From a virus (Duplodnaviria; Caudoviricetes), in IMG/VR virus record IMGVR_UViG_3300014205_009256, positions 14,330 through 78,329 of that record: a stretch of 64,000 bases of DNA. One strand, given 5' to 3'. Position 1 is the first letter of the stretch. Each line of letters opens with the position of its first letter. The position numbers and the translations under genes are program-made. Below are positions 1,133 through 23,762 of this stretch, piece by piece. The notes under the pieces are model-generated. The model did no database searches. It was not told where the DNA came from and worked only from the letters and a program-made list of their open reading frames with translations.

Positions 1133-1149
1133 CAGAAGGTCTCCTGTGG

Positions 1150-1452: not shown

Positions 1453-1514
1453 TGCTCCGTAAAGCTGGTGGATCTGTCGTTGACACATCCCGTCGCGCTG
1501 GCCAGCGGGGGAAA

Positions 1515-1591
1515 GGCAGGTGCGGGAGTCGAACCCGCCGTTCCGAGGCGAAAGGCTTATGAGGCCCCGCGCCGGAATGCCCGGCCCTGCC
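1515..1591 (-). tRNA. Degenerate tRNA-like element, CAT anticodon loop
   Basis: GGCAGG/CCTGCC acceptor; T arm GCGGG-TTCGACT-CCCGC; anticodon arm GGGGC-CTCATAA-GCCTT; non-canonical D arm; no encoded CCA. Confidence 0.5.
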
Positions 1592-1659
1592 AGATGCGCC
1601 CGGGGTGGCCGTCGCTGAAGGACTCGCCACAAACCAAGCGGGCGCGGAGAGATGCTTGG

Positions 1660-2469: not shown

Positions 2470-2532
2470 GTTCTCGCTCACGTTGCTGTTCTCCGTGTCA
2501 AGTGCCCCTGGCTCTCTGGCCATATGAGTCAA

Positions 2533-3162: not shown

Positions 3163-3168
3163 TGGGGA

Positions 3169-3273
3169 CCTCCCGTTGGCCGGGAGGCGTCGCGTGGATG
3201 CCGACAGAGGCTGCGATCACTTGCGCTGGAGGCGTTGCAGGATTGCCGCTTCTGCGGCACCCACAACGCCTCC
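3169..3273 (-). promoter_or_regulatory. Structured 5' leader of sigma gene 1 (long hairpin plus RBS-sequestering hairpin)
   Basis: Stem GGAGGCGTTG/CAACGCCTCC (3228-3273) with inner TGCCGC-AGAA-GCGGCA; CCTCCCG-GCCAA-CGGGAGG (3169-3187) pairs the GGAGG. Confidence 0.55.
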
Positions 3274-3342
3274 ACTAAGTGGCCGGTTAGTTGTCAGGTA
3301 CTCGGATACGTTTCGATCACATGGATGGGCCGCCAGCCCCGA

Positions 3343-3672
3343 TCAGGCGCACACCTCCTCCAGGGTCATCCGGAACGGAAGACCGCGCTGAATCTCGATG
3401 CACGGGACCACGCCGTCGCCCAGCGCCTCCAACTGGGCCAGCAGGTCGCGGACTTGGGCCTTGAGCGCGAAGTCGGCCTTCGCCGACTCCGCACGCGGCC
3501 CGTTCTCCCCGCCGAACTTGATCTCACGGATGATGCGCGGGCGCGGATCGAGCACCGGCTGGCCGGCGCGGACGACCAGGCCTTCGATGCGGCCGTAGTT
3601 CACCCACTGCATCAGTTCGATAAGCTTCCGCTGAGGGGGAGTCGCGCCGTCTTTCCAACCAGGAGCAACCAT
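3343..3672 (-). CDS. Conserved hypothetical protein upstream of sigma (paralog of 39257-39700)
   Basis: GGENGPRAE and GLP motifs shared with the paralog; same position before sigma. Confidence 0.7.
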   Translation of the reverse strand: MVAPGWKDGATPPQRKLIELMQWVNYGRIEGLVVRAGQPVLDPRPRIIREIKFGGENGPRAESAKADFALKAQVRDLLAQLEALGDGVVPCIEIQRGLPFRMTLEEVCA

Positions 3673-3780
3673 CGTTACTGTCCTTTCCGCGGGTTGGCAG
3701 GGGTGAGCACCACGCCCGCCCGTGCAACCGCGATGGGGGCAGTAAAAGGGATGGATTTCCGGCGCAACGATCGCGCAACG

Positions 3781-3815
3781 AAAAAAGCGGCTCAGAAATG
3801 CTCGTTCTGAGCCGC
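3781..3815 (-). terminator. Rho-independent terminator
   Basis: GCGGCTCAGAA/TTCTGAGCCGC 11-bp stem followed by six T on minus strand, downstream of the 729-aa gene. Confidence 0.75.
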
Positions 3816-3866
3816 TGTCGCGGGGAAACACGCTGAAAATTCTTCAGAAACCCGTGTGGCGCAACT

Positions 3867-6056
3867 TCAAACTTTCACGTTGCGCTGCTTTGGGGTGCGG
3901 ATTTCGGTCGTGATCGCATCCATGATCTGGAGCACCTCGTCGTTGGCCAGCCCCTTGGCCTTGGTGATCCACGCCTTGTAGCTGTCCACCTTCACGCGAC
4001 ACGCCCGTCCAGACTCGCCGTTAGACTCGATTTCACCGGCCTGCACAGCTCTGGAAATCGTGCCCTTGTCTGGTGATTCCTCTTTGCCCAGGACACGCTG
4101 TGTGGCACGCAGGACTTGCGCCTGCGTGGCCCAGGCAAATGCATCGCCAACTGGCCGCTCGACTACGGTGACCGGCACGCGTACCTGTCGTTCCATCCCG
4201 TACTTGACGAACCGCACATCCAGCGTGGCGGGAGCCCCGGGCACGGAGAAGGGAGCGCTCGTGCCGGGGCACAGATCGACTTGGCCCGAGGCCTCCGATG
4301 CGTCAAACAGGGTTCCCGAGGGGGCAGCGCACAGGCCGCGCGCGATCCCAATGCCCTCGTTGCGGATCGTCACCGTACCATTCTCACGAGTCGCCACCAG
4401 GTACGGCCACAGAGGCAGCCCGAACTGCTTGAGCATCGCATCGTCCAACGCGGCAGCGTCGGCCACGGTTGATTTGAGCACCTTGCCTCCATCCCCGACC
4501 GAGGAGGGCACTCGTCCCTCGGTTAGGAGCCGCAACGCCGCAGGCATGCCGGTAAGATTCGACGGCAAGGTCTTCGCGGCCGCCATGCACCAGTTGAGTT
4601 TGCCAAGAAGTTCATCGCACGAACCCTTTGTGGCCTTCAAGCGTTCGTGTAGGACGCCCACTAATTTCCACAGGATGGCGGCGAAGCAGTCCGGCGACAA
4701 ATCCTTCGGCTTCCAGCGGAGGCTATAGACCCTCACCTCATCACCGCCGGGATCGACGTCCCATGACTCAAGTTCATGGTCGATGGCCCAGGCAAGAATC
4801 GCCGTTTCAGCGCACGGCCGGCTCGGGGCATCGATGAGCTGCACCCGCTCCACCAGCGCCTCTGCCACAACGCCCCCGAGTTGCAGTGTCTGCGCGTCGG
4901 CCCGACAAGCGTCAAGGAGCGCCGCCGATTCCCTGGGGCTGCGGGCGATCAGTTCGCCAACCCGCATCTTGACATCGTCGGTAATGCCCACTGTGGGAAG
5001 AAGCTGGTTCAGGGCGCGCAGGTGCGGCTGCCACTTGTTCCACGGCTCGCCCAGGTTAAGCGCGTCGAAGAATTGCTGGCGCGCCGCAGTGCTGAGCATC
5101 ACGTCGCGGAACGGCGTCAAATCAACGTTGTCGGGGAACAAACCCAAATCGACATCCAGTTCATCCAGAGAGCGCGGCGTATGGGTGTAGTAGTCCGCGT
5201 CCAGAATCGCGCCCTCGGCCGTGTCCACCAACCGGTAGAACACGCGGGCTTGTTCCTCCGCCGTTTTGGGCTCGGTTTTGTAACTGATCTTGGGAAACCG
5301 CAGCCGCAGCGATCCGCTCAACCCGCGGATGAAGAACCGCACCTGGATGGGGTAGTTCAGGCAGCCGTCCCGCACCTCGATGTCCGAGTCAAAGGACTCG
5401 ATCCGCGCCTCCGGATCAACCTGAATCTCGCGTAGGCGATCCGCCTGCGGGTCGATGTACTGGCGGCTCTGGAAAAGCGCGTGGTCGATGCTCCGGTATT
5501 CCTGCCCCGAGGGATCGGCGAAACGCAGCATGTACAGCCGATCGACGAAGCGGTCGAAGCACAGCTTGCGGAGCTTGGCCAGATCGAACTCGCGCTTGGT
5601 CACGGCGTCTTTGGGAACATGCAGAAACGCTGCGTTGAAGTCGTTGAGCCGCTCATCCGTGATCCGCCGCCCGCCTCCGGTCGCCTTGAACCGCAGCAGT
5701 CCGTTCTCATCCCGCGCATAATGAACGCTGACCGTATCAACGATCACGTCCTGCCAGGCGAACCACAAGGGCCGGCGATTGTCGTAGTCATATGCCCGAA
5801 CCGACAACTCATCCTGTAGCCCCAGCACCACGTGCAAGGCATCGGTCGCGGTCGACTTTGTCCAGGCGAAGACGCCGAAGCGTATCTGCGGCGTCAGCCA
5901 CGCAGATTCCAGGCCCGCGCGAAGCGCGGGGTAATCGAATGGGACGTTCGTCTGGTACGACTGGATGGTGATTTCACGCTGGTCGAGGATGCCGTCGGCG
6001 CGCGGCGGAGTTGCCAGGTGCTGAATGTGGTCCCGAGGTTCGTATGAAGCCGCCAT
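3867..6056 (-). CDS. 729-aa hypothetical protein with C-terminal HTH-like module
   Basis: Long ORF; last ~85 aa align by eye with last ~85 aa of 6170-7138. Confidence 0.7.
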   Translation of the reverse strand: MAASYEPRDHIQHLATPPRADGILDQREITIQSYQTNVPFDYPALRAGLESAWLTPQIRFGVFAWTKSTATDALHVVLGLQDELSVRAYDYDNRRPLWFAWQDVIVDTVSVHYARDENGLLRFKATGGGRRITDERLNDFNAAFLHVPKDAVTKREFDLAKLRKLCFDRFVDRLYMLRFADPSGQEYRSIDHALFQSRQYIDPQADRLREIQVDPEARIESFDSDIEVRDGCLNYPIQVRFFIRGLSGSLRLRFPKISYKTEPKTAEEQARVFYRLVDTAEGAILDADYYTHTPRSLDELDVDLGLFPDNVDLTPFRDVMLSTAARQQFFDALNLGEPWNKWQPHLRALNQLLPTVGITDDVKMRVGELIARSPRESAALLDACRADAQTLQLGGVVAEALVERVQLIDAPSRPCAETAILAWAIDHELESWDVDPGGDEVRVYSLRWKPKDLSPDCFAAILWKLVGVLHERLKATKGSCDELLGKLNWCMAAAKTLPSNLTGMPAALRLLTEGRVPSSVGDGGKVLKSTVADAAALDDAMLKQFGLPLWPYLVATRENGTVTIRNEGIGIARGLCAAPSGTLFDASEASGQVDLCPGTSAPFSVPGAPATLDVRFVKYGMERQVRVPVTVVERPVGDAFAWATQAQVLRATQRVLGKEESPDKGTISRAVQAGEIESNGESGRACRVKVDSYKAWITKAKGLANDEVLQIMDAITTEIRTPKQRNVKV

Positions 6057-6169
6057 CCGCGTTCCTCACTCAAGGTATTCGATCCGGTCGCCACGCCGTC
6101 GGCAACAGCTCGCCGCTCCCGGCACCCGACAATGGCCCGGCTCGAACCTTGCGTCTGGGGTACGCAGGA

Positions 6170-7138
6170 TCAGCAGCGGTTCGATATTTCGCCGATGACA
6201 GCGTTGCGTACCTGGTCGAGTTCGTCCTTGGCCAGTTCACGGCTCTTACCGAGCCAGGCAATAAAGCTCTTAGTATCCACCATGCTCGCCCGGCCGGATT
6301 TCTGGTTCGTGGCAATCTCTCCGTTGCGGCACGCCCGCGAAAGGACACCGGCGTTCAGGCCGGAGTCCTGGCCGAGCACCTGGTTCGTGGCCCTGACCAA
6401 CTCAATCTGCCGCGCCCAAGCGTAACGATCCTCACTCGGCGCGCGAGTGGGGGTGCCTACGGGTTGAGCCTGCAGCATTACAGCCGTTTGGCACTGCGAC
6501 GGTGGTGAATGGAGTAGCGCGACATTTGATCCGGTCTCAACCAGGGCCGACATGGGCGTGGGAGCGGGCACTTCGACGCTGGTTGCTGGCGCGCTCGCCT
6601 GCGTTGATCCCTCGTTCTTCCGCCAAGGGTAGGTTGGTGCCTGCGGCGGCGTGGCGGCAGCTTGCCGCGCGCGGACCAGGCCGTAGGGTGTGGCCGAGAC
6701 GGCCGTCCGCATTCCCGATCCGCTCGGCATCCCCGGCGTCCAGCCGTCATAATCCTTTTTCTCGATGAGCCCGAGTGAGGCGGCTTCGGAGACGGCCGCC
6801 ATCGCTTCGAAGTTCACCCGCTGCACGTCCCACGTGGTGTGGCACAAACCGATCATCTGGGTCATCAGCAGTTCGATACGATCCACATCCACCCATCGTC
6901 GGGATTGAAGGCGCGGTCCGCCGAATCCGAAGGGAAGATGCGTGGGATTAAAGCGCGATATCTGCCCCAGCGCCGCGGTCAGCATGGTCACCGCGTGCGG
7001 CATCTCACCCCCGTGTCGGCCGGCCTTCCCACGTCGGGTCAGCTCGTACGCGCACGCCAGATCGTTCAGAATCTCCGGCGTGACCTGCGGGTCATCCGTG
7101 TCGATGCGGCAAGCCTCCAAGAAGAGTTCAACGGACAT
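6170..7138 (-). CDS. 322-aa hypothetical modular protein (N module shared with 34000-36843; C module shared with 3867-6056)
   Basis: MPHAVTMLTAALGQISRFNPTHLPFGFGGP vs LPHAVSLMIAAVAKLPQFNPKHLPFGYDGP. Confidence 0.7.
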   Translation of the reverse strand: MSVELFLEACRIDTDDPQVTPEILNDLACAYELTRRGKAGRHGGEMPHAVTMLTAALGQISRFNPTHLPFGFGGPRLQSRRWVDVDRIELLMTQMIGLCHTTWDVQRVNFEAMAAVSEAASLGLIEKKDYDGWTPGMPSGSGMRTAVSATPYGLVRARQAAATPPQAPTYPWRKNEGSTQASAPATSVEVPAPTPMSALVETGSNVALLHSPPSQCQTAVMLQAQPVGTPTRAPSEDRYAWARQIELVRATNQVLGQDSGLNAGVLSRACRNGEIATNQKSGRASMVDTKSFIAWLGKSRELAKDELDQVRNAVIGEISNRC

Positions 7139-7239
7139 TCACAGCACCTCGTTCCCAACTCACCACTGCAAATCTTCCAGATCGGTGCCTTCGCTCAACG
7201 CAGGCACCGTGGGCCGATGCGCGCGCGGATCGGCCCAGG

Positions 7240-8001
7240 TCAAAACAGCATTTGGGACCGTTGCCGCAGCAGTAGCCCGGTCTCCTCAAGACGGATGCGC
7301 ATCGCCTCCGCCGACACCTCAAATGTGGCGGCCAGCGGCCGCACGAACATCTCCATCAGGGCGCTGGCGGCGGTGAACTGGTCGGCCCGGCCTGCATCGC
7401 TCCGCTGGTTAATCTCGCTGCGCACGGTTTCCTCGCCGTATTCCTCCCACAGATCCTCCAGGCACACCGGCTCCAGGCTGCCGCGCCAGGCCTGCCAGCC
7501 GGCGCGAAGCAGGTCGGCGGGCATGAGCAGGTGCGCGGCGAAGTAGTCGGCCTGCCATTCCACGGGCTTCTTGGCCTCCGTGGACCGGCACACATACACC
7601 GGCTTGCCATCGGCACCAAACAGCTTCGACTGGTCGGGATTCTCTAGGAAGTATGCCCGGTGCAGCCGCCAGTGCCCCGTCTCGTGGGCCAGCGTGTACC
7701 GATAGCGCCCCAGCATCCGGGGGTGGGCGGTGGGATCGAGACTCGAATCCACGCGAACGGTCTTGTCGTTAATCCAGAGCGCGCCCAGCACATCGCCGAT
7801 CCCGAAGCGTTTCTTGAGGTCGTCGATCTCGAAGATGAGCTTGAGATGACACTCGAGAATGTCATCGACGGGCACCGGGGGGGCCGTCACCGCCTTGAAG
7901 CGCTCGCCGTACTCCGCCAACAGCAGCGCCGCCTCGTCCTGGAGCTGCTCCTTGGTGCGGTAAGGCACATCGCTTCGCGGGATTGCCGATCGCCGGGCCA
8001 T
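7240..8001 (-). CDS. ImmA/IrrE family zinc metallopeptidase
   Basis: RYRYTLAHETGHW (HExxH), EWQADYFAAHLLMP, ATFEVSAEAMRIRL; follows XRE gene. Confidence 0.9.
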   Translation of the reverse strand: MARRSAIPRSDVPYRTKEQLQDEAALLLAEYGERFKAVTAPPVPVDDILECHLKLIFEIDDLKKRFGIGDVLGALWINDKTVRVDSSLDPTAHPRMLGRYRYTLAHETGHWRLHRAYFLENPDQSKLFGADGKPVYVCRSTEAKKPVEWQADYFAAHLLMPADLLRAGWQAWRGSLEPVCLEDLWEEYGEETVRSEINQRSDAGRADQFTAASALMEMFVRPLAATFEVSAEAMRIRLEETGLLLRQRSQMLF

Positions 8002-8005
8002 CGCT

Positions 8006-8365
8006 TCAACCTTCCTTCTCCTTGAGCTTCCTGGCCTTGTCCACCAGTTGCCGCAACTGCTCGGCCGTGAGACCGCTGGCCTCACGCAGCAGCTCTGGCA
8101 TCTGCGTGGGCTGTTTCTGGATGATCTTCGGCAGGTCCTCGGGCACGCGGCCCGCCAGCGCGATCAGTTCATCCGCATTCTCGCCGAGAATCTCGGCCAT
8201 CTTCTTGACCCGCTCTGCGGTCGGCGGGTCGATGTTGCCTTGCTCGACCTGCGAAAGGTAGGTCGGGCTCACGCCCACCTGGTCCGCGAACTTCCGCAGG
8301 CTGATCCCCTTGGCCATGCGCTTTTCCCGCAGCACGTCGCCGAAGGGTTTCTGTTTGCCGCTCAT
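8006..8365 (-). CDS. XRE family HTH transcriptional regulator
   Basis: FGDVLREKRMAKGISLRKFADQVGVSPTYLSQVEQG. Confidence 0.92.
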   Translation of the reverse strand: MSGKQKPFGDVLREKRMAKGISLRKFADQVGVSPTYLSQVEQGNIDPPTAERVKKMAEILGENADELIALAGRVPEDLPKIIQKQPTQMPELLREASGLTAEQLRQLVDKARKLKEKEG

Positions 8366-8405
8366 GATCCGTGCCTCTTCTTCTTTCCGTGACGGCCAAT
8401 GAGTG

Positions 8406-8445
8406 TACGCTGTTTACTTTACACGCACACTGCTGAGCTTGTCAA
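8406..8445 (-). promoter_or_regulatory. Sigma70-like promoter of XRE with 13-bp box
   Basis: TTGACA-18 nt-TAAAGT on minus strand; box AGTAAACAGCGTA (8406-8418) overlaps the -10. Confidence 0.6.
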
Positions 8446-8474
8446 CATCGCATCGCTGTTCCGCCGCACCGGCC

Positions 8475-11363
8475 TCAGTAGTACTCCCGGATGTAGGCAT
8501 ACGCCCGGTCGAACAACTCCTGATCCTGGTGGAGCTTGTACTTGAGGAGCGTTTTTCGCAGCGCCTGCTTCACTTCACGCTCCCCGGCACTCGTGGCCTG
8601 CCAACCGTCAAACCGCACCACGCGAACGATCTCGTCGATGTCGGCGACGATCCGCTCGACCATCACTGGCGTGTTGGCGTTCTTCGCCTCGCTGAACAGG
8701 TCGGTCAGTGCCGCCTTCGCGCGATCCTGGTCTTCCTCGGGGGTAACCGTCTTCTCGGCCGCGATCACATCCTTGGCCAGTTCGAGCAACTGCTTTAGGA
8801 ACTCCTTGCTGTTGAGCAGGCCCTGTTCGTGGCGCTCACGCAGTCGCTCCAGCCGCTCGCCCAGGGCCACGAATTTCGGGTCACCTTTGTGCTTGCGGAG
8901 CCGCGCCACGATCTTGATCTCGACCTCCTTGGTCTTGGTGGGGTCCTTTGACGCGACCAATCCCTCGAGCACCTCCGCATCCATCACCAGCGTTTCCAGA
9001 TCGTCGCGCACGGACTCCATGTGGACGTTCTCGTGGATCAACTCGATGGTCTTGGCCCCGAGAGCATGCCACAGCAGCTTGCCATTGCCGCTGGGCGGCT
9101 TGACCGACTCGTACACCTGCGTCAGCCAGCGGAAGTCGGTCGTATACGGCTTGAGGCACACATCGGGCGACAGCGCCTCCCACAGCCGCGCCACGACCGA
9201 GTAGTCCGCGGCAAAGGCGTCGCGTGTCTCGTTGTTGGGCAAGCAATCCTGCGCCGCGATCAGGCCCTCGTATCCCCCCAGCGCCCGATCCACGCCGGGG
9301 AAATACGCCAGGCACTTGGCCACGGCGTCGGGCAACTGCTTCTTCAGTTCGTCCAGGTTCGTGATGACCTGGAGCACGGCCTTCTCATCGAAGTCCAGCG
9401 CCTTGGCGACATCATCGAAGATGCCCAGGTAGTCCACGATCAAGCCATGCGTCTTGTTCGGGAACGGACGGTTCGTCCGGCAGATCGCCTGGAGCAGATT
9501 GTGGTCCCGCATGGGCTTGTCCAGGTACATCACCTGGAGGATCGGCGCATCGAAGCCGGTCAGCAGACGCGACGTGACGATCAGGAACTTCAGCGGATCG
9601 GCCGGGTCGCGGAAACGGTCCAGCAGCTTCTCCTCCGCATCCCTGCTCAACTCCGGCAGACCGAAGTCGCCAGGCTGGTTCATCACGACGGCGCTGGCCT
9701 CCGGGCCGATCAACTCATCCATCACCTTCTTGTAGAGCACGCAGCATTCACGGTCGAACGTCACCACCTGGGCCTTGAACCCGTTGGGCTCCACCTTCTC
9801 CTTGTAGTGCCGCACGACATGCTCGACGATGGCCCGCACCCGCTCCGGGGCCTTTACCAGCACAGCCATCTTCGCGGCGCGCTTGGCCAGATCATCACGG
9901 TCCTGTTCGCTCAAATTGCCGGTGATCTTGCTGTACGCCTCGTCGATGGCGGCCTGGTCGATCTTGAGCTTGGGCTCCACCGCTTCAAAATGCAGCGGCA
10001 ACGTCGCCTTGTCCCGGATGGAGTCCTGGAACGAGTACCGGCTAAGGTAGCCCTTGGCATCTTCGGGCGCTCCGAACGCCCAGAACGTGTTGCGGTCCCG
10101 CGTGTTGATCGGCGTGCCCGTCAGCCCGAACAGGAACGCCCGGGGCAGCGCATCGCGCATTCGCCGCCCCAGGTCGCCTTCCTGGGTGCGGTGCGCCTCG
10201 TCCACCAGCGCGATGATGTTGGGGCGGTCGTTGAGTACACCGTCGGCCTCGCCGAACTTGTGGATCGTCGTGATGATGACCTTGCGCACGTCCTGCTGGA
10301 GCAGTTGCTGGAGTTCGCCGCGCGTCGAAGCGCCCACCAGGTTGGCGATGTCGGCGGCGTTGAACGTGGCGGTGATCTGCGTGTCCAGGTCAATCCGGTC
10401 CACGACGATGACCACTGTCGGGTTGCCCAACTGCGGGTGCATCCGCAGCTTCTGCGCTGCAAAGACCATCAGCAACGACTTGCCGCTGCCTTGGAAGTGC
10501 CAGATCAGCCCTTTGCGCGTCGTGCCCTTCACCACGCGTTCCACGATCAGGTTCGCGCCTTCGTACTGCTGATACCGGCAGATCACCTTGTTCCGCCGCT
10601 GCTTCTTGTCCGTGGCGAACACCGTGAAATTCTGCAGGAGGTCGAGCACCACGGCCGGCCGCAGCATGGACTCAACCGACTTACGGACATCGGCCAGCGC
10701 GCCCTCGCCGTCGCCGCTCTGCTGACGCCACGGCCCCCACATCTCGATCGGCATGCGGATGGAGCCGTAGCGATAGACCTTGCCCTCCGTGGCAAAGGAG
10801 AAGACATTCGGCACGAACATCGCCGGTACGGACTGCTCGTAGTTGTCATGCACGTCGGCGGCACCATCTACCCACGTCACAGCCGGGCGCACCGGCGTCT
10901 TGGCCTCGCCGATGACCAGCGGGAACCCGTTCACAATCAAGACCACATCGAACCGTTTCTCAACCTGGCCGACCTGGTAGGTCCACTGGTTGGTGACGAT
11001 GAACCGGTTGTTGGCGGGGTTGTCGAAATCGATCAGGCGAATCGGCGTGTGCTCATTGTTCGCCCCGAACGGCATCGTCTTCTCGTTCCGCAGCCACGCG
11101 GCAAGAGTCTCATTGGCCCGCACCAGGCCGTCCGTCTGCACGGCCAGGGGCATGGCGCGGAGCCGGTAGAGGACTTCATCGGCGCGGTCGGGCTGCTGCG
11201 CGATCTCCGGATTGAGGCGGATCAGCGCATCACGCACCATCGACTCAACAAACACCTCTCCCGGCTGCCGGGGTAGCGAGGCCGAAACGGCATACTGCCA
11301 ACCGTGGCCTTTGCAGGCATCAATCACCATCTGCTCTACGGCGTTAGATTCATTGAAACTCAT
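8475..11363 (-). CDS. hsdR: Type I restriction endonuclease subunit R
   Basis: N-terminal FDVVLIVNGFPLVIGEAK nuclease, HFQGSGKS, DEAHR, LLTGFDAP, QAICRTNR helicase motifs. Confidence 0.95.
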   Translation of the reverse strand: MSFNESNAVEQMVIDACKGHGWQYAVSASLPRQPGEVFVESMVRDALIRLNPEIAQQPDRADEVLYRLRAMPLAVQTDGLVRANETLAAWLRNEKTMPFGANNEHTPIRLIDFDNPANNRFIVTNQWTYQVGQVEKRFDVVLIVNGFPLVIGEAKTPVRPAVTWVDGAADVHDNYEQSVPAMFVPNVFSFATEGKVYRYGSIRMPIEMWGPWRQQSGDGEGALADVRKSVESMLRPAVVLDLLQNFTVFATDKKQRRNKVICRYQQYEGANLIVERVVKGTTRKGLIWHFQGSGKSLLMVFAAQKLRMHPQLGNPTVVIVVDRIDLDTQITATFNAADIANLVGASTRGELQQLLQQDVRKVIITTIHKFGEADGVLNDRPNIIALVDEAHRTQEGDLGRRMRDALPRAFLFGLTGTPINTRDRNTFWAFGAPEDAKGYLSRYSFQDSIRDKATLPLHFEAVEPKLKIDQAAIDEAYSKITGNLSEQDRDDLAKRAAKMAVLVKAPERVRAIVEHVVRHYKEKVEPNGFKAQVVTFDRECCVLYKKVMDELIGPEASAVVMNQPGDFGLPELSRDAEEKLLDRFRDPADPLKFLIVTSRLLTGFDAPILQVMYLDKPMRDHNLLQAICRTNRPFPNKTHGLIVDYLGIFDDVAKALDFDEKAVLQVITNLDELKKQLPDAVAKCLAYFPGVDRALGGYEGLIAAQDCLPNNETRDAFAADYSVVARLWEALSPDVCLKPYTTDFRWLTQVYESVKPPSGNGKLLWHALGAKTIELIHENVHMESVRDDLETLVMDAEVLEGLVASKDPTKTKEVEIKIVARLRKHKGDPKFVALGERLERLRERHEQGLLNSKEFLKQLLELAKDVIAAEKTVTPEEDQDRAKAALTDLFSEAKNANTPVMVERIVADIDEIVRVVRFDGWQATSAGEREVKQALRKTLLKYKLHQDQELFDRAYAYIREYY

Positions 11364-11366
11364 GGA

Positions 11367-12629
11367 TCAGCTCCTACGCATCGATGTACCCGCCAGACAC
11401 TGTTCCCGAAGCGTCCGCCGCATCCGGTCGGCACATTCTCTATGCGCCATGGTTCGGTTCTGACCTGCCGTGATGTCGTTGACCATGCGCACGAATCTGG
11501 TTTGCTCGTCTTTTGGGGGAATTGGCATGTACAGGCGAGCGAAACGGTCTGCCCCAAGATGGGCAATTGAGGTGGTCTGACTCGCGACGGCCGCGAACAC
11601 CCCCGCGTAGAACGCGTGTCGCAGGTAAGCAAACGCGAAGTCTTCGAGCAACCGAGGACCTGCTCGGAACCTAACCAGCGTGTTCTGAAAGCAGCAATCC
11701 CTTATCTCTCCGTTGAACACCGCGCAGCGTCCGACGAGTTCCCGACTTTGGCCTTCATTCAGAAGGATGTCACCCGGCTTCAGCGCGAACGTCTTAAAAT
11801 CGCCGTCATCAAAATCCATCTCGAGCACATCAGTCAGGTCGAGATACCCGTCGAACACATTCGCTACCCGAAGGTATGGCTTGGTGTGCGATCCCGACTG
11901 GTACTTTGGTGCGCGTTGTCGCCCCAATTGGACCTCACCAGCGTCACCGATCCGAACGACATCCCATTCAACAGGCACCGGCCCCAGCGGCGAGGTCTTG
12001 GTACGCCCTGGAGCAGCCGCGTGAACAAAGCAAGAACGGAGGATTGTTCGTCGCGCTGTATCCGCCTGTGCGACGGCGGCATCGATACGCTCTGCCACCT
12101 CTGTCGCGGCCCATAGAATTTCAGCAATGCGGCACTGCTGATCCTTTGGCGGCAGTGGAAACTCCTGTCGGCGCAGCACGCTCCAGTTGATGGTCGGAGA
12201 CAGTGAACCGACCGAGATCGACAACGCCCGGTCCATGAACATGCTGCTTTGCATCAGGAACGGCAGGAAGTCCTTGTCGATAACGTCTTCGCGCGCACGG
12301 ATGACCATCGCGTGCGCCGAGCAGATGCCGTCGAATTCGGCGACAGCGACCTTTCGCTGATAGACGCGACGGCGTCCAAAGATGATGTCGCCGGTCCTGA
12401 ACCGGAGCTTCGTGGCCTCGACATCGTCTGGCGTGCCCCAGCGCCGTATTTTCAGAGACTCGGTGTCGAGATGTTCCAAGCCGACGTAGTACTCAGTGTC
12501 CGCATCGCCTGGTTCGACGCGCTCGCCGATCGACTCAGCGATCTCGTCGAACCTCGCCATGCGCCAGCCGGCAGGAAGCGCGGCGGTCACGGGTGCGTTC
12601 GTCGGGGATGTTGGTTTCGCGGTCTTCAC
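11367..12629 (-). CDS. hsdS: Type I specificity subunit S
   Basis: Two TRDs separated by PLPPKDQQCRIAEIL and PIPPKDEQTRFV conserved regions; 420 aa. Confidence 0.92.
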   Translation of the reverse strand: MKTAKPTSPTNAPVTAALPAGWRMARFDEIAESIGERVEPGDADTEYYVGLEHLDTESLKIRRWGTPDDVEATKLRFRTGDIIFGRRRVYQRKVAVAEFDGICSAHAMVIRAREDVIDKDFLPFLMQSSMFMDRALSISVGSLSPTINWSVLRRQEFPLPPKDQQCRIAEILWAATEVAERIDAAVAQADTARRTILRSCFVHAAAPGRTKTSPLGPVPVEWDVVRIGDAGEVQLGRQRAPKYQSGSHTKPYLRVANVFDGYLDLTDVLEMDFDDGDFKTFALKPGDILLNEGQSRELVGRCAVFNGEIRDCCFQNTLVRFRAGPRLLEDFAFAYLRHAFYAGVFAAVASQTTSIAHLGADRFARLYMPIPPKDEQTRFVRMVNDITAGQNRTMAHRECADRMRRTLREQCLAGTSMRRS

Positions 12630-12674
12630 AATGCGGTTCCTGCTTTTGCGTGGATCACGACGGTCTGTTGCGTG

Positions 12675-14441
12675 TCACTTCAGCCGTTTGTCGACCCACT
12701 TCCACTTCTTGTAGGCGATCTCCATGCAGCGGTTGTAGGCGGTGTTTGTCCTGAGGAATGCGAACGAGCCCTCGGCAACCTTGTCGGCGTAGGCCGAGTC
12801 CCGGATCAGGTCGGACAGCATCATGCGGACGCGAGTCGTCGCGATCTGCGACAGCAGCGCTGTGTAATCGGCGGGAACGGCCATGCCCTGGCCGAAGGCG
12901 TCGGCGTGGTCCGGCAGCTCCGGATCGTTGAGGATGCCCTGGCACAGGAGCGCCCAGACCAGGTTGCGTGCCCGCAACACGAACTCGTATTTGTTCCGGC
13001 CCTTGTCGACGATCTCATTCACGAGCTTCCGGAGGCGGAAGTGAATCTTGTAGCACAGGATGATGTGTCGCGAGTCGGCCTTTAGGCGGGATGGGTTGAA
13101 TACCTGGGCGTAGATTCGGTCGTCCTCAAACACCTCCCTGATCCGCGAGAGCTTGTCGATGGCCCCGTCGGAGACGAGGAAGGTATGGGCAAGGCGGACC
13201 AGCTCGACGGCCTTGCCTTCAGTGATGCCCTGTTCCTCCATCTCCTCGTAGCTGAGATTGGCAAAGGCCTCCTCCTGGCGCTCATAGTAGATGCCCAGGT
13301 CCGAGCGGAACTTGTCCTGCAGCTCGAGCTGGATCAGGTCGTTAGCGTGCAGGTTCCAGGGCTCGACGGGGTTCTGGCGGTTGTTGTTGATGGTCACCGG
13401 GGTGACAAACTCCGGCGTGGCGTTGGTGATCACGCGGCACATCACCCGCAGGTCTTCAAGTCGGGGCCGCTGTTCCGCCAGGCGGGGGTTGTCCTTGTTC
13501 GCGTTCATGAACTCGTTGAAGGTTGTAACAGTCTGGGCACCGTTCAGGAGGCGTGGCGCGGTGACGCGATACTGCCCATCCACCCGCTCCACCTTCTCGG
13601 CAAACATCGTGATGCCGTTGTGGTTGAACGCGAAGACGGCGGGTTTCTCAGTGCCATCAAGAACGATCTGCTTGAGCGCGCGGGACAGCGCACGGTTGAC
13701 GGCCTCAGAGCTGCCCAGGCCGTAGCGGATGTTCCGTTCGAAGAATCGCTGCCCCATGTCACGGTGGATCGTGTTCAGATCGATCAGCCGAATGAAGCCG
13801 ATGTGCATCACTTGACCATCGGGGCCGGGCTGCGTGATGAGATCGGTCAGCGGCAGATCGTAGACCCTTGTCTGGCGCATGTCGGCCACTGGCCCGACCT
13901 TGCCATCGACCGACCGGAACTCCACGACCAACGTCACCTGTCGGTTGGCGAAGAACTGGTCGACCAGGTACTTCTTGTTCTCCAGATCTTCGCGCAGCTT
14001 GTCGAGCACCTGACTGCGCTCGGCCTCCGCCGGGTCTCCAGTGAAAACGAAGCGGAAGCACACCTGATCGATCAAGGCGCGGTTGTCGATCATGCAGCTG
14101 CGGAGCTGCAGGAGAAGCTGATTCTTGTTGTCGTCCTGGTTGGGCGTCAGGAAGATTCGCTCCATGCCCACGTCAATCAGCCGCTGGAGCGTTGGCTTGA
14201 ACTGGGCATGCGATGGCGAGTACTTGAACTGGTACAGATAGAGATTACGCCTGTCGGGATCGAAGTGGAACCCATCCAGGCCATAGTCGTTGCCGCCGAA
14301 CGCGACCTGGTTCACCGCTTTCTCGCGGGACAACCCGCACTCCCGCTGGAGGTAGAGCAGGCCGAAGTAGTCGTTGCGCACCCCGCCACAGGTTGCCTTG
14401 AGGTCGGAGCAGGCTTGGTCGATCATCCGGTCGGTGATCAT
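12675..14441 (-). CDS. AIPR family protein
   Basis: FFERNIRYGLG, FAFNHNGITM, LLNGAQTVTT, NNRQNPV; start MITDRM overlaps hsdM stop. Confidence 0.85.
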   Translation of the reverse strand: MITDRMIDQACSDLKATCGGVRNDYFGLLYLQRECGLSREKAVNQVAFGGNDYGLDGFHFDPDRRNLYLYQFKYSPSHAQFKPTLQRLIDVGMERIFLTPNQDDNKNQLLLQLRSCMIDNRALIDQVCFRFVFTGDPAEAERSQVLDKLREDLENKKYLVDQFFANRQVTLVVEFRSVDGKVGPVADMRQTRVYDLPLTDLITQPGPDGQVMHIGFIRLIDLNTIHRDMGQRFFERNIRYGLGSSEAVNRALSRALKQIVLDGTEKPAVFAFNHNGITMFAEKVERVDGQYRVTAPRLLNGAQTVTTFNEFMNANKDNPRLAEQRPRLEDLRVMCRVITNATPEFVTPVTINNNRQNPVEPWNLHANDLIQLELQDKFRSDLGIYYERQEEAFANLSYEEMEEQGITEGKAVELVRLAHTFLVSDGAIDKLSRIREVFEDDRIYAQVFNPSRLKADSRHIILCYKIHFRLRKLVNEIVDKGRNKYEFVLRARNLVWALLCQGILNDPELPDHADAFGQGMAVPADYTALLSQIATTRVRMMLSDLIRDSAYADKVAEGSFAFLRTNTAYNRCMEIAYKKWKWVDKRLK

Positions 14442-15979
14442 GGTCTCGTTCCTTTCCTTCCTGGACCTGCGCCAACCGCAACGTTCTCGCCGAGCGTGTT
14501 GAGGAGGTCGTTCATCGAACTGCGCAGCGCCAATGAGCTTTCGCGCCATGCCCGGACGGCCGTGGCCAATGCGTCAGCACCTTGGTTAGCGCCGCCCGTG
14601 TCGGTTGTCTTGCCGTTCGCGGGCCGAATGTACAGGGGGATACTGAGGTTGCAGTCCTGCTGGCGGATCTCGTCAATGCCAACGAGGCGGGAGAACCCGT
14701 CAACGGCCGTCTCCGGGCGCTGGTAGGCATCCACGATCTGCTGAATGTGCTCGTCGGTGAGGAAGCTCTGGCTGCGCTGGCGGGTAACCTCATCGACCGC
14801 ATTAATAAACAGCACCTTGCCGCGCAGCGCCTTGGGCTTGGCGGTGCGGCAGATGACCACGCACGCCTCCATCGGTGAGTTGTAGAACAGGTTCGGCCCC
14901 AAGCCGAGGACGCACTCGATCACGTCGTGCTCGACCAGCTTGACCCGCATGTCGTGCTCTTCGTTGCGGAAGAGGACGCCATGAGGGAAGAGGATGGCGC
15001 AGCGGCCAGTCTTAGGCTTGAGGCTGACGATGATGTGCTGCCAGAAGGCGTAGTCGGCTCGGCCCTGTGGGGGCGTGCCATAGATATTTCGCCGCCAAGG
15101 GTCGGCGGACCACTTGTCGCGGTCCCATTGCTTGATGGAGTACGGGGGATTGGCGAGGACCATGTCGAACTGCCGGAGGCGGTCGCCTTCCACAAGTTTC
15201 GGATCGGCAAGGGTGTCGCCGCGCACGATCTCGAAGTCTTCGATGCCGTGCAGAAACATGTTCATCCGCGCGATGGCGGACGTCATGAGGTTCCGCTCCT
15301 GGCCGTACAACCTGACGGTGCGCCATTCCTTCTTCCGGCGGCGGAGGTGTGTCACGCTGGACAACAGCATGCCGCCAGAGCCACAGGTGGGGTCGTAGAT
15401 CGACTCGCCTGGACGGGGCTGCAGCATCTCGGTCATCAGGTGGACGACCGTGCGGTTGGTGTAGAACTCAGCGGCAGTGTGGCCGGAGTCATCGGCGAAC
15501 TTCTTGATTAGGTACTCGTAGCCGTTCCCCAGCTCATCCTCGGGCAGGTTGGCGATGGACAGGGTCAGCGTCGAGAAGTGTTCAACCAAGTCCTTCAGTG
15601 TGTCGTCGGAGAGCCGGTCCTTGTTGGTCCACTGAGCGTCGCCGAAGATGCCGTAGAGCTTCTCGGGGTTGGCCTTTTCGATTGACCGCATCGCCGACTG
15701 AATCGACGCGCCGACATTGCTGCCGGCGGCTCTCACGGCCTTCCAGTGCGCCTTGGGCGGCACCTGGAAGCGGTGGTTCTCGGCGAACTGCGCGAAGGCA
15801 ACGTCGCCGCCGGACTGGTCGAGCGCCTTCTGGTACTCCTCGTCGTAAACGTCGCACAACCGCTTGAAGAACAACAGCGGGAAGATGTACTGCTTGTAGT
15901 CGCCGGCGTCGATGTAGCCGCGCAGGAGCGTGGCCGCGCCCCAAAGGTAGGACTCGAGTTGCCCTTGGTTGATTCTCAT
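14438..15979 (-). CDS. hsdM: Type I methyltransferase subunit, NPPY motif (predicted m4C type)
   Basis: HsdM N-domain, YDPTCGSGGML, motif IV ANPPYS. Confidence 0.93.
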   Translation of the reverse strand: MRINQGQLESYLWGAATLLRGYIDAGDYKQYIFPLLFFKRLCDVYDEEYQKALDQSGGDVAFAQFAENHRFQVPPKAHWKAVRAAGSNVGASIQSAMRSIEKANPEKLYGIFGDAQWTNKDRLSDDTLKDLVEHFSTLTLSIANLPEDELGNGYEYLIKKFADDSGHTAAEFYTNRTVVHLMTEMLQPRPGESIYDPTCGSGGMLLSSVTHLRRRKKEWRTVRLYGQERNLMTSAIARMNMFLHGIEDFEIVRGDTLADPKLVEGDRLRQFDMVLANPPYSIKQWDRDKWSADPWRRNIYGTPPQGRADYAFWQHIIVSLKPKTGRCAILFPHGVLFRNEEHDMRVKLVEHDVIECVLGLGPNLFYNSPMEACVVICRTAKPKALRGKVLFINAVDEVTRQRSQSFLTDEHIQQIVDAYQRPETAVDGFSRLVGIDEIRQQDCNLSIPLYIRPANGKTTDTGGANQGADALATAVRAWRESSLALRSSMNDLLNTLGENVAVGAGPGRKGTRP

Positions 15980-16584
15980 TCTGCCGCCTTGAACATTTCA
16001 GCGTAAACGGCAACGCGTGCCTTGCTCTCCCGCATCCGCTTGGCTAGCGCGAATACACGATTTGTGAGGTCCGATGGCCGAAGATGGTTGACCAACCACC
16101 GAGAGTCGAAATCAGCATTGCCCTTCGCGGAGAGATCGATCTGTAGTCGGACATCATCGTCGTCTTTCAGCGTCTCGTAAGCGGGCTTGGGGCGGCCCGG
16201 CTTGCCCTTCCGAGAGGCGGCCTGCGCCGTGTAAGCGGCCTTGATGTTGTCGCTGCCGTCGATGAACCAGATACGGTCCCAACGCGGGCTCCAGATTGCC
16301 AGGCACAATGCGGGCTGCCGATCGACGTACATCCGGCGCAGTCCCTGGACGGTCGCGATGTGATCGGCTCCATCGTCTTGCACGGCCTTGGCCTGAACGG
16401 GGATGGGCAACAAGTCGGTGTTTGCTCCCTCCAGAATCAAGAGGTCGATTTCGTCGTCATTCCAATATGGCTTTGCCACGTACAGACCAAAGGCCACAAG
16501 CTGGGCGGCAACACGTGCCTCGCCGGCAAGACCAGACCATGTGTTCTTGAGCGCCGGGATACGGCTGATTGGTTTAGCCATCAC
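15976..16584 (-). CDS. PD-(D/E)XK nuclease-like protein (DUF4365-like)
   Basis: GLAGEARV...DDEIDL...PVQAKA; overlaps both hsdM genes. Confidence 0.6.
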   Translation of the reverse strand: MMAKPISRIPALKNTWSGLAGEARVAAQLVAFGLYVAKPYWNDDEIDLLILEGANTDLLPIPVQAKAVQDDGADHIATVQGLRRMYVDRQPALCLAIWSPRWDRIWFIDGSDNIKAAYTAQAASRKGKPGRPKPAYETLKDDDDVRLQIDLSAKGNADFDSRWLVNHLRPSDLTNRVFALAKRMRESKARVAVYAEMFKAAE

Positions 16585-18148
16585 TCAGCCCTGCCTTTCG
16601 TAACAGCCCCGCGAGCTTGTCCTCGGCCGAGTAGGCAGCGTCTAGAGCAGTCTTCAAATCGGTGATGGCCTGGCCAACTGTCACCGTGTCGCTGGCGACT
16701 ACTGGCTCGACGTAGCGGGGGATATTGAGATTGAAATCGTTGGCGCGGATGTCATCGAGCGTGACCACTTTGGCAGCGCCGGCGCTGTCGGCGTACCCCT
16801 CGTACCAGTGATAGATGCGTTCGACGTGTTCGGGCAGAAGTTCGTTCTGCTGGCGGCCCTTCTTGAACTCCCGCGATGCATCGATGAACAGGACGCGTTG
16901 GCGGCGATCTTTCGGCCGCCGCGCACGGAATACCATGATGCACGCGGCCAAGCCCGCGCCGTAGAACAGGTTTGGAGCGAGGCCGATCACGGCATCAAGG
17001 ATGTCCAACTCGATGATCTTCTGGCGAATTCTTCCCTCCGCGCCCATGCGGAACAGCGCCCCGTGCGGCAGCACTACGGCCATCCGCCCCGTCTTCGGAG
17101 CCATCGACTTGATCATGTGCTGGACCCATGCGAAGTCTCCGCTTTTGCTGGGCGGCATGCCCGCGAAGTTGCGGCCATAGGGGTCGCTGGCCCAGACCTC
17201 TTCACCCCACTTCTCCAGGGAGAACGGCGGATTGGCGATCACGCAGTCGAACGTCATCAGACGGTCGCCGGCATAGAACGCCGGCTCGCGGAGCGTGTCG
17301 CCACGCACGATCTTGAAGTCCTCCACGCCGTGGAGCAGCAGGTTCATCCGAGCGATGGCCGACGTCGTGAGATTCTTTTCCTGCCCGTACAGCTTGCCGT
17401 AGAGGGTCTTGACGTTGCCGCCCGCGGCGCGGACGTGGTGGATGGCCTCCAGCAGCATCCCGCCAGTACCGCACGCGGGGTCGTAGATCAGGTCGCGCTC
17501 CTTGGGGTCCAGGATGTTGATGAGGAGCCGGACGACCGAGCGCGGGGTGTAGAACTCCCCGGCCTTCTTGTTCGTGGCATCCGCGAACTTCTTGATCAAA
17601 TACTCATAGGCCTGGCCGAGGATGTCGGCCTGTGCTTGGCGGTTGCCCAGAGAGAGACGGGAGAAGTGCTCGATCAGATCCCGGAGCAATGCATCCGACA
17701 GGCGGTCCTTGTTGGTCCAGTTGGCGTCACCGAAAATGCCGTAGAGGGTGTCGGGGTTGGCCTTCTCGATCTCGCGCAGCGCCCGCTGCAGGGCTTGGCC
17801 GATGTTGGCGGTCTTCGCCCGGACGTCACTCCAGTGGCAGCCCTCGGGAATCTGGAAGCGGTGGTTCTCCGGGAACAAGGCGAACTGCTGGTCGCCGCCC
17901 GACAGGTCCATCGCCTCGGCCAGTTCGTCGTCGTAGACGTCGGAAATGCGCTTGAAGAACAGCAGCGGGAAGATGTAGGTCTTGAAATCGGCAGCATCCA
18001 CCGGACCACGAAGGATGTTGGCGGCCTCCCACAGATGGCTGGAGAGCGCCGAGAGCGTCACCTCGGCCGGAACAGAAGCCGGTGCCGCCGGGGTCCTGCC
18101 ATTGCCGTTTGTGCCCTTGGCCAAGTTGCCTGCTCCTCTCTGATTCAC
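16574..18148 (-). CDS. hsdM: Type I methyltransferase subunit, NPPF motif (predicted m6A type)
   Basis: LWEAANILRG, GEFYTPRSVV, YDPACGTGGML, motif IV ANPPFS. Confidence 0.93.
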   Translation of the reverse strand: MNQRGAGNLAKGTNGNGRTPAAPASVPAEVTLSALSSHLWEAANILRGPVDAADFKTYIFPLLFFKRISDVYDDELAEAMDLSGGDQQFALFPENHRFQIPEGCHWSDVRAKTANIGQALQRALREIEKANPDTLYGIFGDANWTNKDRLSDALLRDLIEHFSRLSLGNRQAQADILGQAYEYLIKKFADATNKKAGEFYTPRSVVRLLINILDPKERDLIYDPACGTGGMLLEAIHHVRAAGGNVKTLYGKLYGQEKNLTTSAIARMNLLLHGVEDFKIVRGDTLREPAFYAGDRLMTFDCVIANPPFSLEKWGEEVWASDPYGRNFAGMPPSKSGDFAWVQHMIKSMAPKTGRMAVVLPHGALFRMGAEGRIRQKIIELDILDAVIGLAPNLFYGAGLAACIMVFRARRPKDRRQRVLFIDASREFKKGRQQNELLPEHVERIYHWYEGYADSAGAAKVVTLDDIRANDFNLNIPRYVEPVVASDTVTVGQAITDLKTALDAAYSAEDKLAGLLRKAGLSDG

Positions 18149-18181
18149 ATCGTGACCGGCGCTCCGTTCGAGCGAGCAGCG

Positions 18182-18210
18182 ACCATACGCTGTTTACTAA
18201 ACGATGACAA
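18182..18210 (-). promoter_or_regulatory. Sigma70-like promoter of the R-M operon with 13-bp box
   Basis: TTGTCA-17 nt-TATGGT on minus strand; AGTAAACAGCGTA (18186-18198) identical to the box at 8406-8418. Confidence 0.6.
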
Positions 18211-18363
18211 GTGTACCGCGCCCGGTTATCATCCGCTAGTGCTGGGGGCGATACCCGGCCAGAATTGTGCCCGCGGGCCGGTGCGAGGCAGCGCCCCAGA
18301 ATAGCGTCGGGGCGTTCAGTAGGACGGCGGGCGCGCGCGACGACATCGCGAGGAGACGAACGA

Positions 18364-19778
18364 ATGAAACTTGACCAGCTTCTCAATTTCAAGCCATTGG
18401 GCTTCATCGATTCACCCATCGGCAAACTGGCTGTTTTCGCCATCTCCGTCAAGGACATGGAGTCGGTGCGCGCCAAGTCTGTCCGGGACACTGACCCTCA
18501 GGAAGTGGTTCGTCGTCTTCTCCCCTGCATCCTGCACAAAGCGGACGCGTTGAAGGACGACGGGAGCAAGCCTGACGCGCCAGGATTGACCGATGAACAG
18601 ATTCGCGGCTTGCCGGCCGACGTCGTCGAGGCGGCGTTGGGGCTCTTCATCGAACACTCGGAACACCTCTATCGGGCATTCGTCTCGAAGACGACCACCG
18701 GCGAGAAAGGTGAGCACATCACCTCCCTGGATTACGGTGACGTGCAACACCCCAAGAAGGACGGGGAGTCGAATGTCGCGTACCTCCACCGTCTCCTTGT
18801 GCTCGAGGAAGAGGAGCTGAAACGACAGTATGAGAAACTAGCGGGACCGCTGATGGGAGTGGCGCGTTTTCCGATGGCCTGGCACAGAATATAAAAAACA
18901 CGCTGCTTCTCGGCGACACGATGGCCAAGGCCTATGAGGCAATGCGCGCACCCGTGATGCCTGATCTGTCTAAGCTCATTGCGAAGCCTCTGGATATCCC
19001 GCACATCTCCACGGCTCCCAGCCTGCCCTCGATAGATTACGCGGCAATGGCCAAGAGCGCCGAGGAGGCGCGCTGGGCTCCGTTTCGAGCCGTAAACCAG
19101 CGCCTCGACCAACTCATCGAATTCGCCCGAGGTTCCGGCGAGTTCGCTGTGCAGATGAATCAGACGCAGACGCAGATTGCCGCCGAGATCAAGGCGTCAA
19201 GCGACGAATCCACGAAGATTGGCGAGGAGTCGCTGAAGGTCGCGACTGCATCCTTGAAGGTGGGGGAGGAGTCGCTGAAGGTCGGGACCGCGTCCCTGAA
19301 GATCAGCGAGGATTCGGTGAAAGCTGCCAAAGACTCGCTGAAAGTTGCACGTCTTGGATTTTGGACGACGATAGTCGTGGTCCTCCTCACCGTGATGGGC
19401 CTTGGGATAACCGCGGCAAGCTGGTGGGGCTCAGATGGGACTGCACGCAAAGCGGACGAGCATGCTGCGGGCATCATCGGCGGACTCTCGGACCTGAAGA
19501 CGGTCGTGGTGGACGAGGGGAAGGCATCCTCGCGTGGAATGACCGCGCTTCTGGATGAGCTGAAGGCGGGCCGTTTGGAGCAAAGCAAGAGGCTGGACGC
19601 AGTGCTAGCCCAACAGACGAAACTCTTCGAGTACCAGACCACCCAGCGCGCTACCGACCAGGCGATGATCGAGACCATGAGCAAACGCATCACCCAACTC
19701 GAAGAGGAGATTCGGAAACTACAGCTTCAGAGCACGTCGAGACCAGCGCAGACCGCCCCGTCGAACGCGGGAAAGTAA
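18364..19778 (+). pseudogene. Probable single gene split by a 1-nt frameshift; membrane-anchored coiled-coil protein with heptad repeats
   Basis: ORF 18364-18894 joins ORF 18921-19778 if one T is added in CGTTTTCC (~18865-18872), giving GVARFSDGLAQNIKNTLLLGDTMAK; repeats ESLKV/ASLKV; hydrophobic helix FWTTIVVVLLTVMGLGI. Confidence 0.55.
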
Positions 19779-23758: not shown

Positions 23759-23762
23759 CGTA

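Follow-up and report, generated by a model that had tools for sequence, protein, structure and literature searches.

The DNA analyzed here is a stretch of 64,000 nucleotides (nt; hereafter the window), corresponding to positions 14,330 to 78,329 of the 78-kb IMG/VR provirus record IMGVR_UViG_3300014205_009256. Its subject is a minus-strand cluster in which a type I restriction-modification (R-M) operon with an embedded AIPR abortive-infection gene is followed by genes for an XRE-family helix-turn-helix (HTH) repressor and an ImmA-type M78 metallopeptidase. Comparison with related loci suggests that XRE/ImmA is a phage immunity switch whose repressor also acts on the promoter of the R-M/AIPR operon, which the phage carries as cargo, and the probability of this reading is put at about 0.58. 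XRE probably binds at the hsdM promoter, an assessment held with some reserve. The features on which the reading rests are as follows.

8006..8365, minus strand: XRE-family HTH repressor, 119 amino acids, recognition helix SPTYLSQVEQ (Pfam HTH_3 1e-15; PADLOC capH 1.1e-12)
7240..8001, minus strand: ImmA/IrrE-type M78 metallopeptidase, 253 amino acids, HETGH (Pfam Peptidase_M78 6e-09; PADLOC capP 2.3e-17)
8445..8416, minus strand: predicted XRE promoter, TTGACA-18-TAAAGT (promoter scan 10/12)
18210..18182, minus strand: predicted hsdM promoter, TTGTCA-17-TATGGT (promoter scan 9/12)
18204..18232, plus strand: predicted divergent promoter, ATGACA-17-TATCAT (promoter scan 10/12)
8403..8425, minus strand: predicted XRE autoregulatory operator, which includes box 1 and overlaps the -10 of the XRE promoter (25.6 bits; 22.0 bits in a second model)
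18183..18205, minus strand: operator-like site in the hsdM promoter, which includes box 2 and a palindrome (16.6 bits on the minus strand, 15.2 bits on the plus strand; 10.6 bits in the second model)
18190..18253, no strand assigned: conserved promoter block common to the window and the related locus L004 (86% identity over 64 nt)

The two promoters share a 13-mer, TACGCTGTTTACT on the plus strand and AGTAAACAGCGTA in the minus-strand form, on which all genes concerned are read. An earlier note on this DNA had reported identical copies at 8406-8418 (box 1) and 18186-18198 (box 2), and both were found to be exact; the two minus-strand promoters it had named were likewise returned by the promoter scan, for which the background was 0.2 sites per region in shuffles. 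Box 1 lies 40 nt from the XRE ATG (8365) and box 2 lies 37 nt from the first GTG (18148) of the hsdM open reading frame (ORF), so that the distances given earlier are right for these two starts. An in-frame TTG at 18124, which lies behind GAGAGGAG and at 61 nt from the box, is the better candidate for the hsdM start on sequence grounds, and the HsdM_N domain begins at residue 35 of the long ORF (Pfam). Both copies are predicted to sit within sigma-70-type promoters. Box 1 overlaps the -10 of the XRE promoter, and box 2 fills the -35/-10 spacer of the predicted hsdM promoter; the -35 hexamers of this promoter and of the divergent one overlap. The position of box 2 within the promoter spacer makes a common repressor for both promoters plausible.

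Matches to the box with at most 2 mismatches numbered four in the window against 0.30 expected, a count that none of 100 shuffles attained, and with at most 1 mismatch the two copies were the only matches in the 78-kb record. Repeats of 13 nt were found to be commonplace in the window (225 direct and 199 inverted pairs), while 13-mers or longer common to two intergenic regions amounted to four pairs against 0.32 expected (28 crude intergenic regions, 4336 nt). The repeat of a 13-mer alone is therefore not rare, and it is the placement of the copies that matters. The hsdM site also contains a palindrome, GTTTACTAAAC, at 18192-18202, of which this is the sole copy in the window.

An operator model of 23 nt was refined on the XRE-upstream regions of relatives (designated below by locus number) from 14 sites, none of them taken from the window or from an hsdM block. 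Only two places in the 78-kb contig reached at least 15 bits, namely the XRE promoter (8403) and the hsdM box (18183 and 18189 on the two strands), the next-best hit being the other strand of the XRE site at 12.8 bits. The null for this model was 0.32 hits of at least 15 bits per 100 kb. A second model, built from 26 sites located after ImmA in the relatives, also ranked the XRE promoter first and the hsdM box second in the contig. These results support the earlier claim of one switch for the XRE and R-M promoters insofar as the hsdM box fits an independently built model; the further claim that the switch is dedicated to R-M/AIPR is not borne out, as described below. The dyad AGT-N2-AC-N3-GT-N2-ACT proposed earlier is present at the XRE copy, but was not kept in the closest relatives, L004 and L005, and the conserved operator frame is a site of about 23 nt that differs from it. 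Arms of the form TGTA-N12-TACA were also considered and rejected, since part of this pattern is the -10 hexamer of the promoters; they were replaced by the models learned from relatives.

The model was scanned over 42 loci (641,629 bases). The XRE promoters of the closest relatives keep the site overlapping the -10, and each locus's own site has a look-alike some 1.1 kb further downstream, immediately behind ImmA and before the gene that follows; this post-ImmA site, on which the model had not been trained, scored at least 15 bits in 27 of 41 loci. Ten further places reached the same score (6 intergenic and 4 intragenic) against about 2 expected from the null. Five of the six intergenic hits (one each in L004, L087 and L090, two in L086) are found 13-71 nt upstream of a cargo operon's first gene, and the sixth is in L083, about 230 nt upstream of XRE. 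Among ten loci with a type I R-M cargo on the same strand, a site of at least 13 bits within 150 nt upstream of the cargo head was found in five (the window, L004, L086, L087 and L092), whereas 1.2% of random windows from the same loci reached this score.

The sites also vary with the protein. Loci with the recognition helix SPTYLSQVEQ, including the window, have TAAAC/GTTTA-type sites, and the units of the hsdM palindrome, TAAACAG and CGTTTAG or TGTTTAG, were found in the XRE promoters of L008, L009 and L085, which have this same helix. Relatives with the helix SSTYISQLEQ have GCTTA-type palindromes at both the XRE and the post-ImmA promoters, suggesting that operator specificity covaries with the protein, i.e. 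that repressor and operator change together. This sub-family comprises L003, L010, L021-L023, L084 and L096-L098; the GCTTA-type palindromes were seen both upstream of XRE and after ImmA in L003 and L021-L023, and L096-L098 carry a related GCTTAG stretch instead.

The position of XRE/ImmA in related loci indicates its role. Relatives of XRE were drawn from genome and metagenome collections, 6 of 401 genomes of the phylum of L004, and 37 viral contigs, and synteny was mapped by tblastn over 70 locus lines. The named metagenome-assembled genomes with XRE relatives are mostly Planctomycetota, with one Nitrospira, and the host of the phage is probably a planctomycete. A recurring backbone was seen in about 35 viral contigs, in the order DUF2924, serine integrase, a variable slot, XRE, ImmA, a 398-amino-acid gene, a 325-amino-acid gene, sigma, exonuclease, Sak4, helicase and primase. 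The early genes of the window are syntenic with those of L003, L004, L005 and about 30 further viral contigs, and match those of L004 and L005 at 50-94%. From this recurrence it follows that XRE/ImmA is a core gene pair of a temperate-phage family, at the position of the immunity module.

The gene pair itself agrees with this assignment. The XRE gene (stop at 8006) is directly adjoined by the gene for a COG2856/M78 metallopeptidase (start at 8001, set by homology to L004) that retains the HExxH motif as HETGH in the translation, and relatives have the pair in a mobile element by an integrase and ahead of early genes (synteny in viral contigs, PHROGs). The likeness to repressor-metallopeptidase switches suggested earlier is supported by the capH and capP matches, of which the latter spans positions 60-124 of 242 only; Peptidase_M78 is the sole Pfam domain found in ImmA. 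The earlier statement that this is not the usual C-protein control also stands, since XRE comes after hsdR and is paired with a protease, and the Control_protein match in PADLOC is weak (E 2.2e-05).

The slot between integrase and repressor is variable. It is empty in L003, L078, L084 and L085. Type I R-M genes, which may read with XRE or against it, occupy the slot in 19 of the 70 locus lines, a count that includes redundant lines. Type I cargo was confirmed by PADLOC in L086, L087, L092 and L093, and L090 carries a DrmD-like gene and a type III methylase (PADLOC); R-M is thus one among several cargos. Only -4 to +55 nt separate the last R-M gene from XRE in L087, L105, L086, L088, L092, L093, L089 and L113, where R-M, XRE and ImmA would most simply form one operon, and in L086 and L087 the promoter heading this operon resembles the XRE promoters of other family members. 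In the window, the cargo takes the place of the integrase beside XRE/ImmA, the nearest serine integrase being encoded at 31811-33397 on the opposite strand. No terminator-like site was found in the scan of the minus strand from hsdR to XRE. The cargo operon of the window consists of the following genes, in the order hsdM1, 202-amino-acid ORF, hsdM2, AIPR/AbiU, hsdS and hsdR, followed by XRE and the M78 peptidase.

16574..18148, minus strand: hsdM1, ORF from GTG 18148 (Pfam N6_Mtase 5e-101)
15976..16584, minus strand: 202-amino-acid ORF (no Pfam, PHROGs or PADLOC match)
14438..15979, minus strand: hsdM2 (Pfam N6_Mtase 3e-88)
12675..14549, minus strand: AIPR/AbiU-like abortive-infection gene inside the operon (Pfam AIPR 1.5e-21; PADLOC AbiU 1e-26)
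11367..12629, minus strand: hsdS (Pfam Methylase_S; PADLOC Specificity_I 2.9e-114)
8475..11363, minus strand: hsdR (Pfam HSDR_N, SWI2_SNF2, T1R_D3; PADLOC REase_I 2.9e-130)

The presence of hsdM, hsdS and hsdR together (Pfam, PADLOC) identifies a type I system, and a protein with an AIPR domain is encoded within it. The two hsdM paralogues, which are 51% identical in protein sequence, stand in one operon with the 202-amino-acid ORF in between. HsdM1 is 80% identical to the product of the hsdM that is divergent from XRE in L068. The AIPR ORF start overlaps hsdM2, and the actual start may be further in.

The hsdM promoter lies in a block that is also present in L004, a locus whose XRE is 90% identical to that of the window and which likewise has a type I R-M system upstream of XRE. 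In a DNA search of the 401 genomes, the sole match below E 1e-3 was the genome of L004 itself. The HsdM proteins flanking the block are 36-49% identical between window and L004, in pieces only, and the genes on the other side are unrelated. Three sites of at least 15 bits were found on the L004 contig, at the XRE promoter (28.5), after ImmA (20.8) and in the hsdM block (15.1), and AGTAAACAG occurs in 4 copies in its 5-Mb genome, 2 of them in this locus. In L004, the block is found in the interval from a serine recombinase to XRE and is flanked by defence genes on either side; it drives an R-M/dGTPase operon in one direction and PLD and PDC-S18 genes in the other. Because it is internal to the L004 element and has genes leading away in both directions, it is an internal bidirectional promoter piece; an attachment site or element end was ruled out, and no tRNA gene was found in the window.

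Near-identical metagenome contigs, including contigs at 95-97%, cover the XRE-hsdR junction and the 5' end of hsdM. In two of them, the match to the window breaks off at the block edge (18241), where one contig ends and the other continues with unlike sequence. A 15-mer of the block had 34 matches in viral contigs, in none of which was the rest of the block found alongside, and a gapped-pattern search for the block gave no matches. The motif CCGGTTAT[GC]ATC was observed in the -35/-10 spacer of the XRE promoters of L008, L068, L087, L093 and L003, and also in the plus-strand half of the block in the window (18222-18241). The motif may serve as a second regulatory site or as an element of the promoter.

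Several results weigh against the proposal that the phage repressor acts on the R-M/AIPR promoter. At 16.6 bits, the hsdM site falls well short of the XRE site (25.6 bits), the second model gives it 10.6 bits and the L004 block less than 9 bits, and an early model of 10 sites gave it 12.5 bits, about the level of the best random hit in 78 kb; that model was replaced once more loci came in. The score of the hsdM box is modest, and the outcome varies with the model used. Half of the ten R-M cargo heads (L093, L113, L088, L105 and L082) have no hit. Within the block, the box is no better kept than the rest (11/13 against 86%), and since the block is common by descent, the window and L004 count as one lineage, leaving about two or three independent lineages in support. 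The post-ImmA operator that most relatives carry is absent from the window (7139-7239), so that the switch there could be an unusual or degenerate one. A lysogen in which R-M was fully repressed would also lose the protection and the methylation that R-M provides; partial tuning alone would make sense biologically, which is speculation.

In the same interval of the window, G+C-rich hairpins stand where relatives have the post-ImmA operator and promoter; L005, the nearest relative for the gene after ImmA, has 30.1 bits at its post-ImmA site. The hairpins (7139-7245) were considered as a distinctive structure and set aside, the folding z-score being only -1.78. No known RNA families were found in 7000-19000.

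Three other explanations of the shared box were weighed. A chance resemblance of two A+T-rich promoter cores would fit the abundance of 13-mer repeats in the window, and at least one shared 13-mer arose somewhere in 26% of 300 intergenic-region shuffles. This explanation is nevertheless very improbable, given that a model built independently predicted this promoter pair at a score expected so rarely, that the hit falls within 40 nt of a gene start beside the XRE module, and that the site is kept in L004. It is also possible that the hsdM box is a relic, the block having come from another immunity region as a mosaic piece through recombination at operator sequences; either the resident XRE would have no useful binding there, or another regulator would use the site. 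The plus-strand half of the block resembles the -35 and spacer of the XRE promoters of relatives (L008, L068, L087 and L093, through the motif described above), the likeness to L004 and to the metagenome contigs stops at 18241-18254, where the -10 and operator would come next, and the outer arms of the site are unlike those kept in the closest XRE promoters. On the other hand, the recognition helix of the window is the same as that of L008, L009 and L085, whose promoters carry TGTTTAG or CGTTTAG units, so that a relic of this family would still suit the resident repressor, and the block was held at 86% though both flanks were exchanged. A relic is accordingly regarded as unlikely.

The earlier note had seen XRE/ImmA as a dedicated regulator of the R-M/AIPR operon, in the manner of CapH/CapP, and thus as a switch belonging to a defence island and not as a phage immunity module. 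In addition to the capH and capP matches, this is consistent with the near-identical metagenome contigs, which cover pieces between 7334 and 18241 and of which single ones stop matching at 18241 and near 7215, as if ImmA, XRE, R-M and the block had moved together. HsdM, HsdR or HsdS matches upstream of XRE in the locus lines counted above, and the arrangement of L068, where TGTTTA-N8-TAAACA lies between the divergent hsdM and XRE in a CapH/CapP-type layout, also speak in its favor. Many relatives, e.g. L003, L005, L078, L084 and L085, nevertheless have XRE/ImmA without R-M, and the constant partners of the pair are phage early and replication genes, which always follow it, and a serine integrase, which usually precedes it. 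The best-conserved operator target is the promoter after ImmA, and the pair of the window lies downstream of the operon on the same strand, whereas CapH/CapP pairs are described as upstream and opposite (Lau et al. 2022 preprint). A dedicated regulator is for these reasons considered quite unlikely; taken as a whole, the interpretation given in the earlier note is partly supported.

From gene identities, synteny, motif statistics and operon layouts, we infer the binding, the direction of regulation and the cleavage with its trigger in the circuit that follows. XRE and its cognate protease ImmA would form a switch of the ImmR/ImmA, DdrO/IrrE and CapH/CapP kind, in which XRE would occupy an operator of about 23 nt over the -10 of its own promoter and so limit its own expression. 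In relatives, XRE would also bind the second operator, in the early promoter just after ImmA, and hold that promoter. The R-M/AIPR operon is defence cargo in the integrase-repressor slot, directly upstream of XRE on the same strand, with a promoter in the conserved block of about 65 nt, where a near-palindromic operator of the same family is predicted in the -35/-10 spacer, abutting the -35 of the divergent promoter. Most likely, XRE would repress or tune this cargo promoter. The level of R-M/AIPR in lysogens would then be set by the autoregulated repressor and would rise upon cleavage of XRE by ImmA, and read-through from the R-M operon into XRE-ImmA is likely.

Comparison with known systems places this arrangement among several types. 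In ICEBs1 ImmR/ImmA and the phi105 repressor/ImmA pair, the repressor is thought to keep the early genes of the element off and the protease to remove the repressor (Lau et al. 2022 preprint; Makarova et al. 2009, PMC2701414). As far as these sources describe them, the ICEBs1 and Bacillus phage phi105 pairs share with the present locus an XRE repressor and an adjacent COG2856/M78 metallopeptidase in a mobile element by an integrase. The host phylum and phage family differ, however, and here repressor, protease and early genes are co-directional, the relatives have a second promoter with a predicted operator after the protease gene, and defence cargo lies between integrase and repressor.

With CapH/CapP of CBASS, DISARM and other defence operons, the pair has in common a similarity at the level of profile hidden Markov models and a tie between repressor-protease pair and defence operon. 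CapH/CapP pairs lie upstream of their operon on the opposite strand, according to the preprint of Lau et al. (2022), whereas the pair of the window is downstream, co-directional and in a phage backbone; the divergent layout is found in L068. Type I R-M is not named among the CapH/CapP-associated systems in the portions of the CapH/CapP literature available.

In lambda, the defence genes rexA and rexB are on the autoregulated maintenance promoter PRM of the repressor cI, as outlined in PMC11077077, and L087, L093 and L105 similarly have R-M, XRE and ImmA as one operon. Unlike lambda, where the defence genes follow the repressor gene, the cargo precedes it here, and the window has two promoters, each with an operator-like site. 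Small HTH regulators of type I systems are also known: RptR is a repressor whose target promoter serves an entire type I R-M operon with embedded DarTG (PMC12255303), and a C-family gene represses the hsd operon of Mycoplasma (PMC12707154). XRE would resemble these regulators as a small HTH repressor predicted to act on a whole type I R-M operon with a second embedded defence system. In contrast to XRE, RptR and the C proteins have no partner protease and no role in phage immunity, and the layout of XRE is not that of C-protein control, in which a small C protein with C-boxes in its own promoter is co-transcribed ahead of the restriction gene.

The system thus appears to extend the known repressor-protease switches to a phage immunity module that also controls defence cargo. 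Apart from proteolytic restriction alleviation and a handful of small repressors, little is understood of how type I R-M systems are controlled. If the proposal is correct, a prophage master repressor that can be removed by a protease would tie the decision for lysogeny, DNA damage and defence into a single circuit, and would explain how phage-borne R-M cassettes are swapped and yet stay regulated. A literature search found no study of planctomycete prophages and none of planctomycete prophages with R-M, and, among the papers listed and supplements aside, no XRE/ImmA pair described as controlling type I R-M. For a planctomycete phage family, the analysis further provides an operator motif and identifies a conserved cargo hotspot.

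A wider and more tentative proposal, possible though not at present the probable one, is that this planctomycete temperate-phage family is widespread and has turned its ImmR/ImmA-type switch into a plug-in platform on which defence cargo is expressed. Operons of the type I R-M, Abi and DISARM-like kinds would be inserted between integrase and repressor, either under operator-bearing promoters or in the operon of the repressor; the repressor would set defence in lysogens, DNA damage would boost it, and cargo would be swapped at operator/promoter junctions.

The cluster is flanked on both sides by further genes, as follows.

293..7138, minus strand: phage early genes after ImmA, namely orf322, orf729, sigma factor, exonuclease VIII-like and Sak4-like (PHROGs, synteny)
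18364..19778, plus strand: two divergent genes, 176 and 285 amino acids, function not assigned (no family match at the thresholds used)

Beyond the Sak4-like gene, RusA, helicase and primase genes follow on the same strand (PHROGs). Upstream of the hsdM promoter, the two plus-strand genes are followed by a Lamassu LmuB gene and a type IIG enzyme, and then by a DUF2924/serine-integrase module heading a second phage-like gene set with terminase, portal and tail genes. The LmuB-like gene (20153-23782, 1209 amino acids; PADLOC 1013 bits) has an N-terminal stretch similar to ABC-3C MComp1, and its presence brings the defence systems of the island to at least three.

The contig (L076 1-14400 and window 1-64000) holds two phage-like gene sets head to head. 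A primase and a ParB-methyltransferase are present in each set, XRE/ImmA in the left set only, and integrase and structural genes are in view in the right set only.

Two further repeats were observed in the window. The direct repeat AGGTCGTTGCGGGC, at 25719-25732 and 31065-31078 with similar flanks, brackets the type IIG/ISP restriction gene (25988-30937), its second copy lying about 270 nt upstream of the DUF2924/serine-integrase module, and may have been left by an insertion or mark a site of recombination. The second repeat, CCCCGGAAGTAAG, is located at 54930-54942 and 58627-58639, in both cases directly after a TAA stop and a short C run, behind two structural genes.

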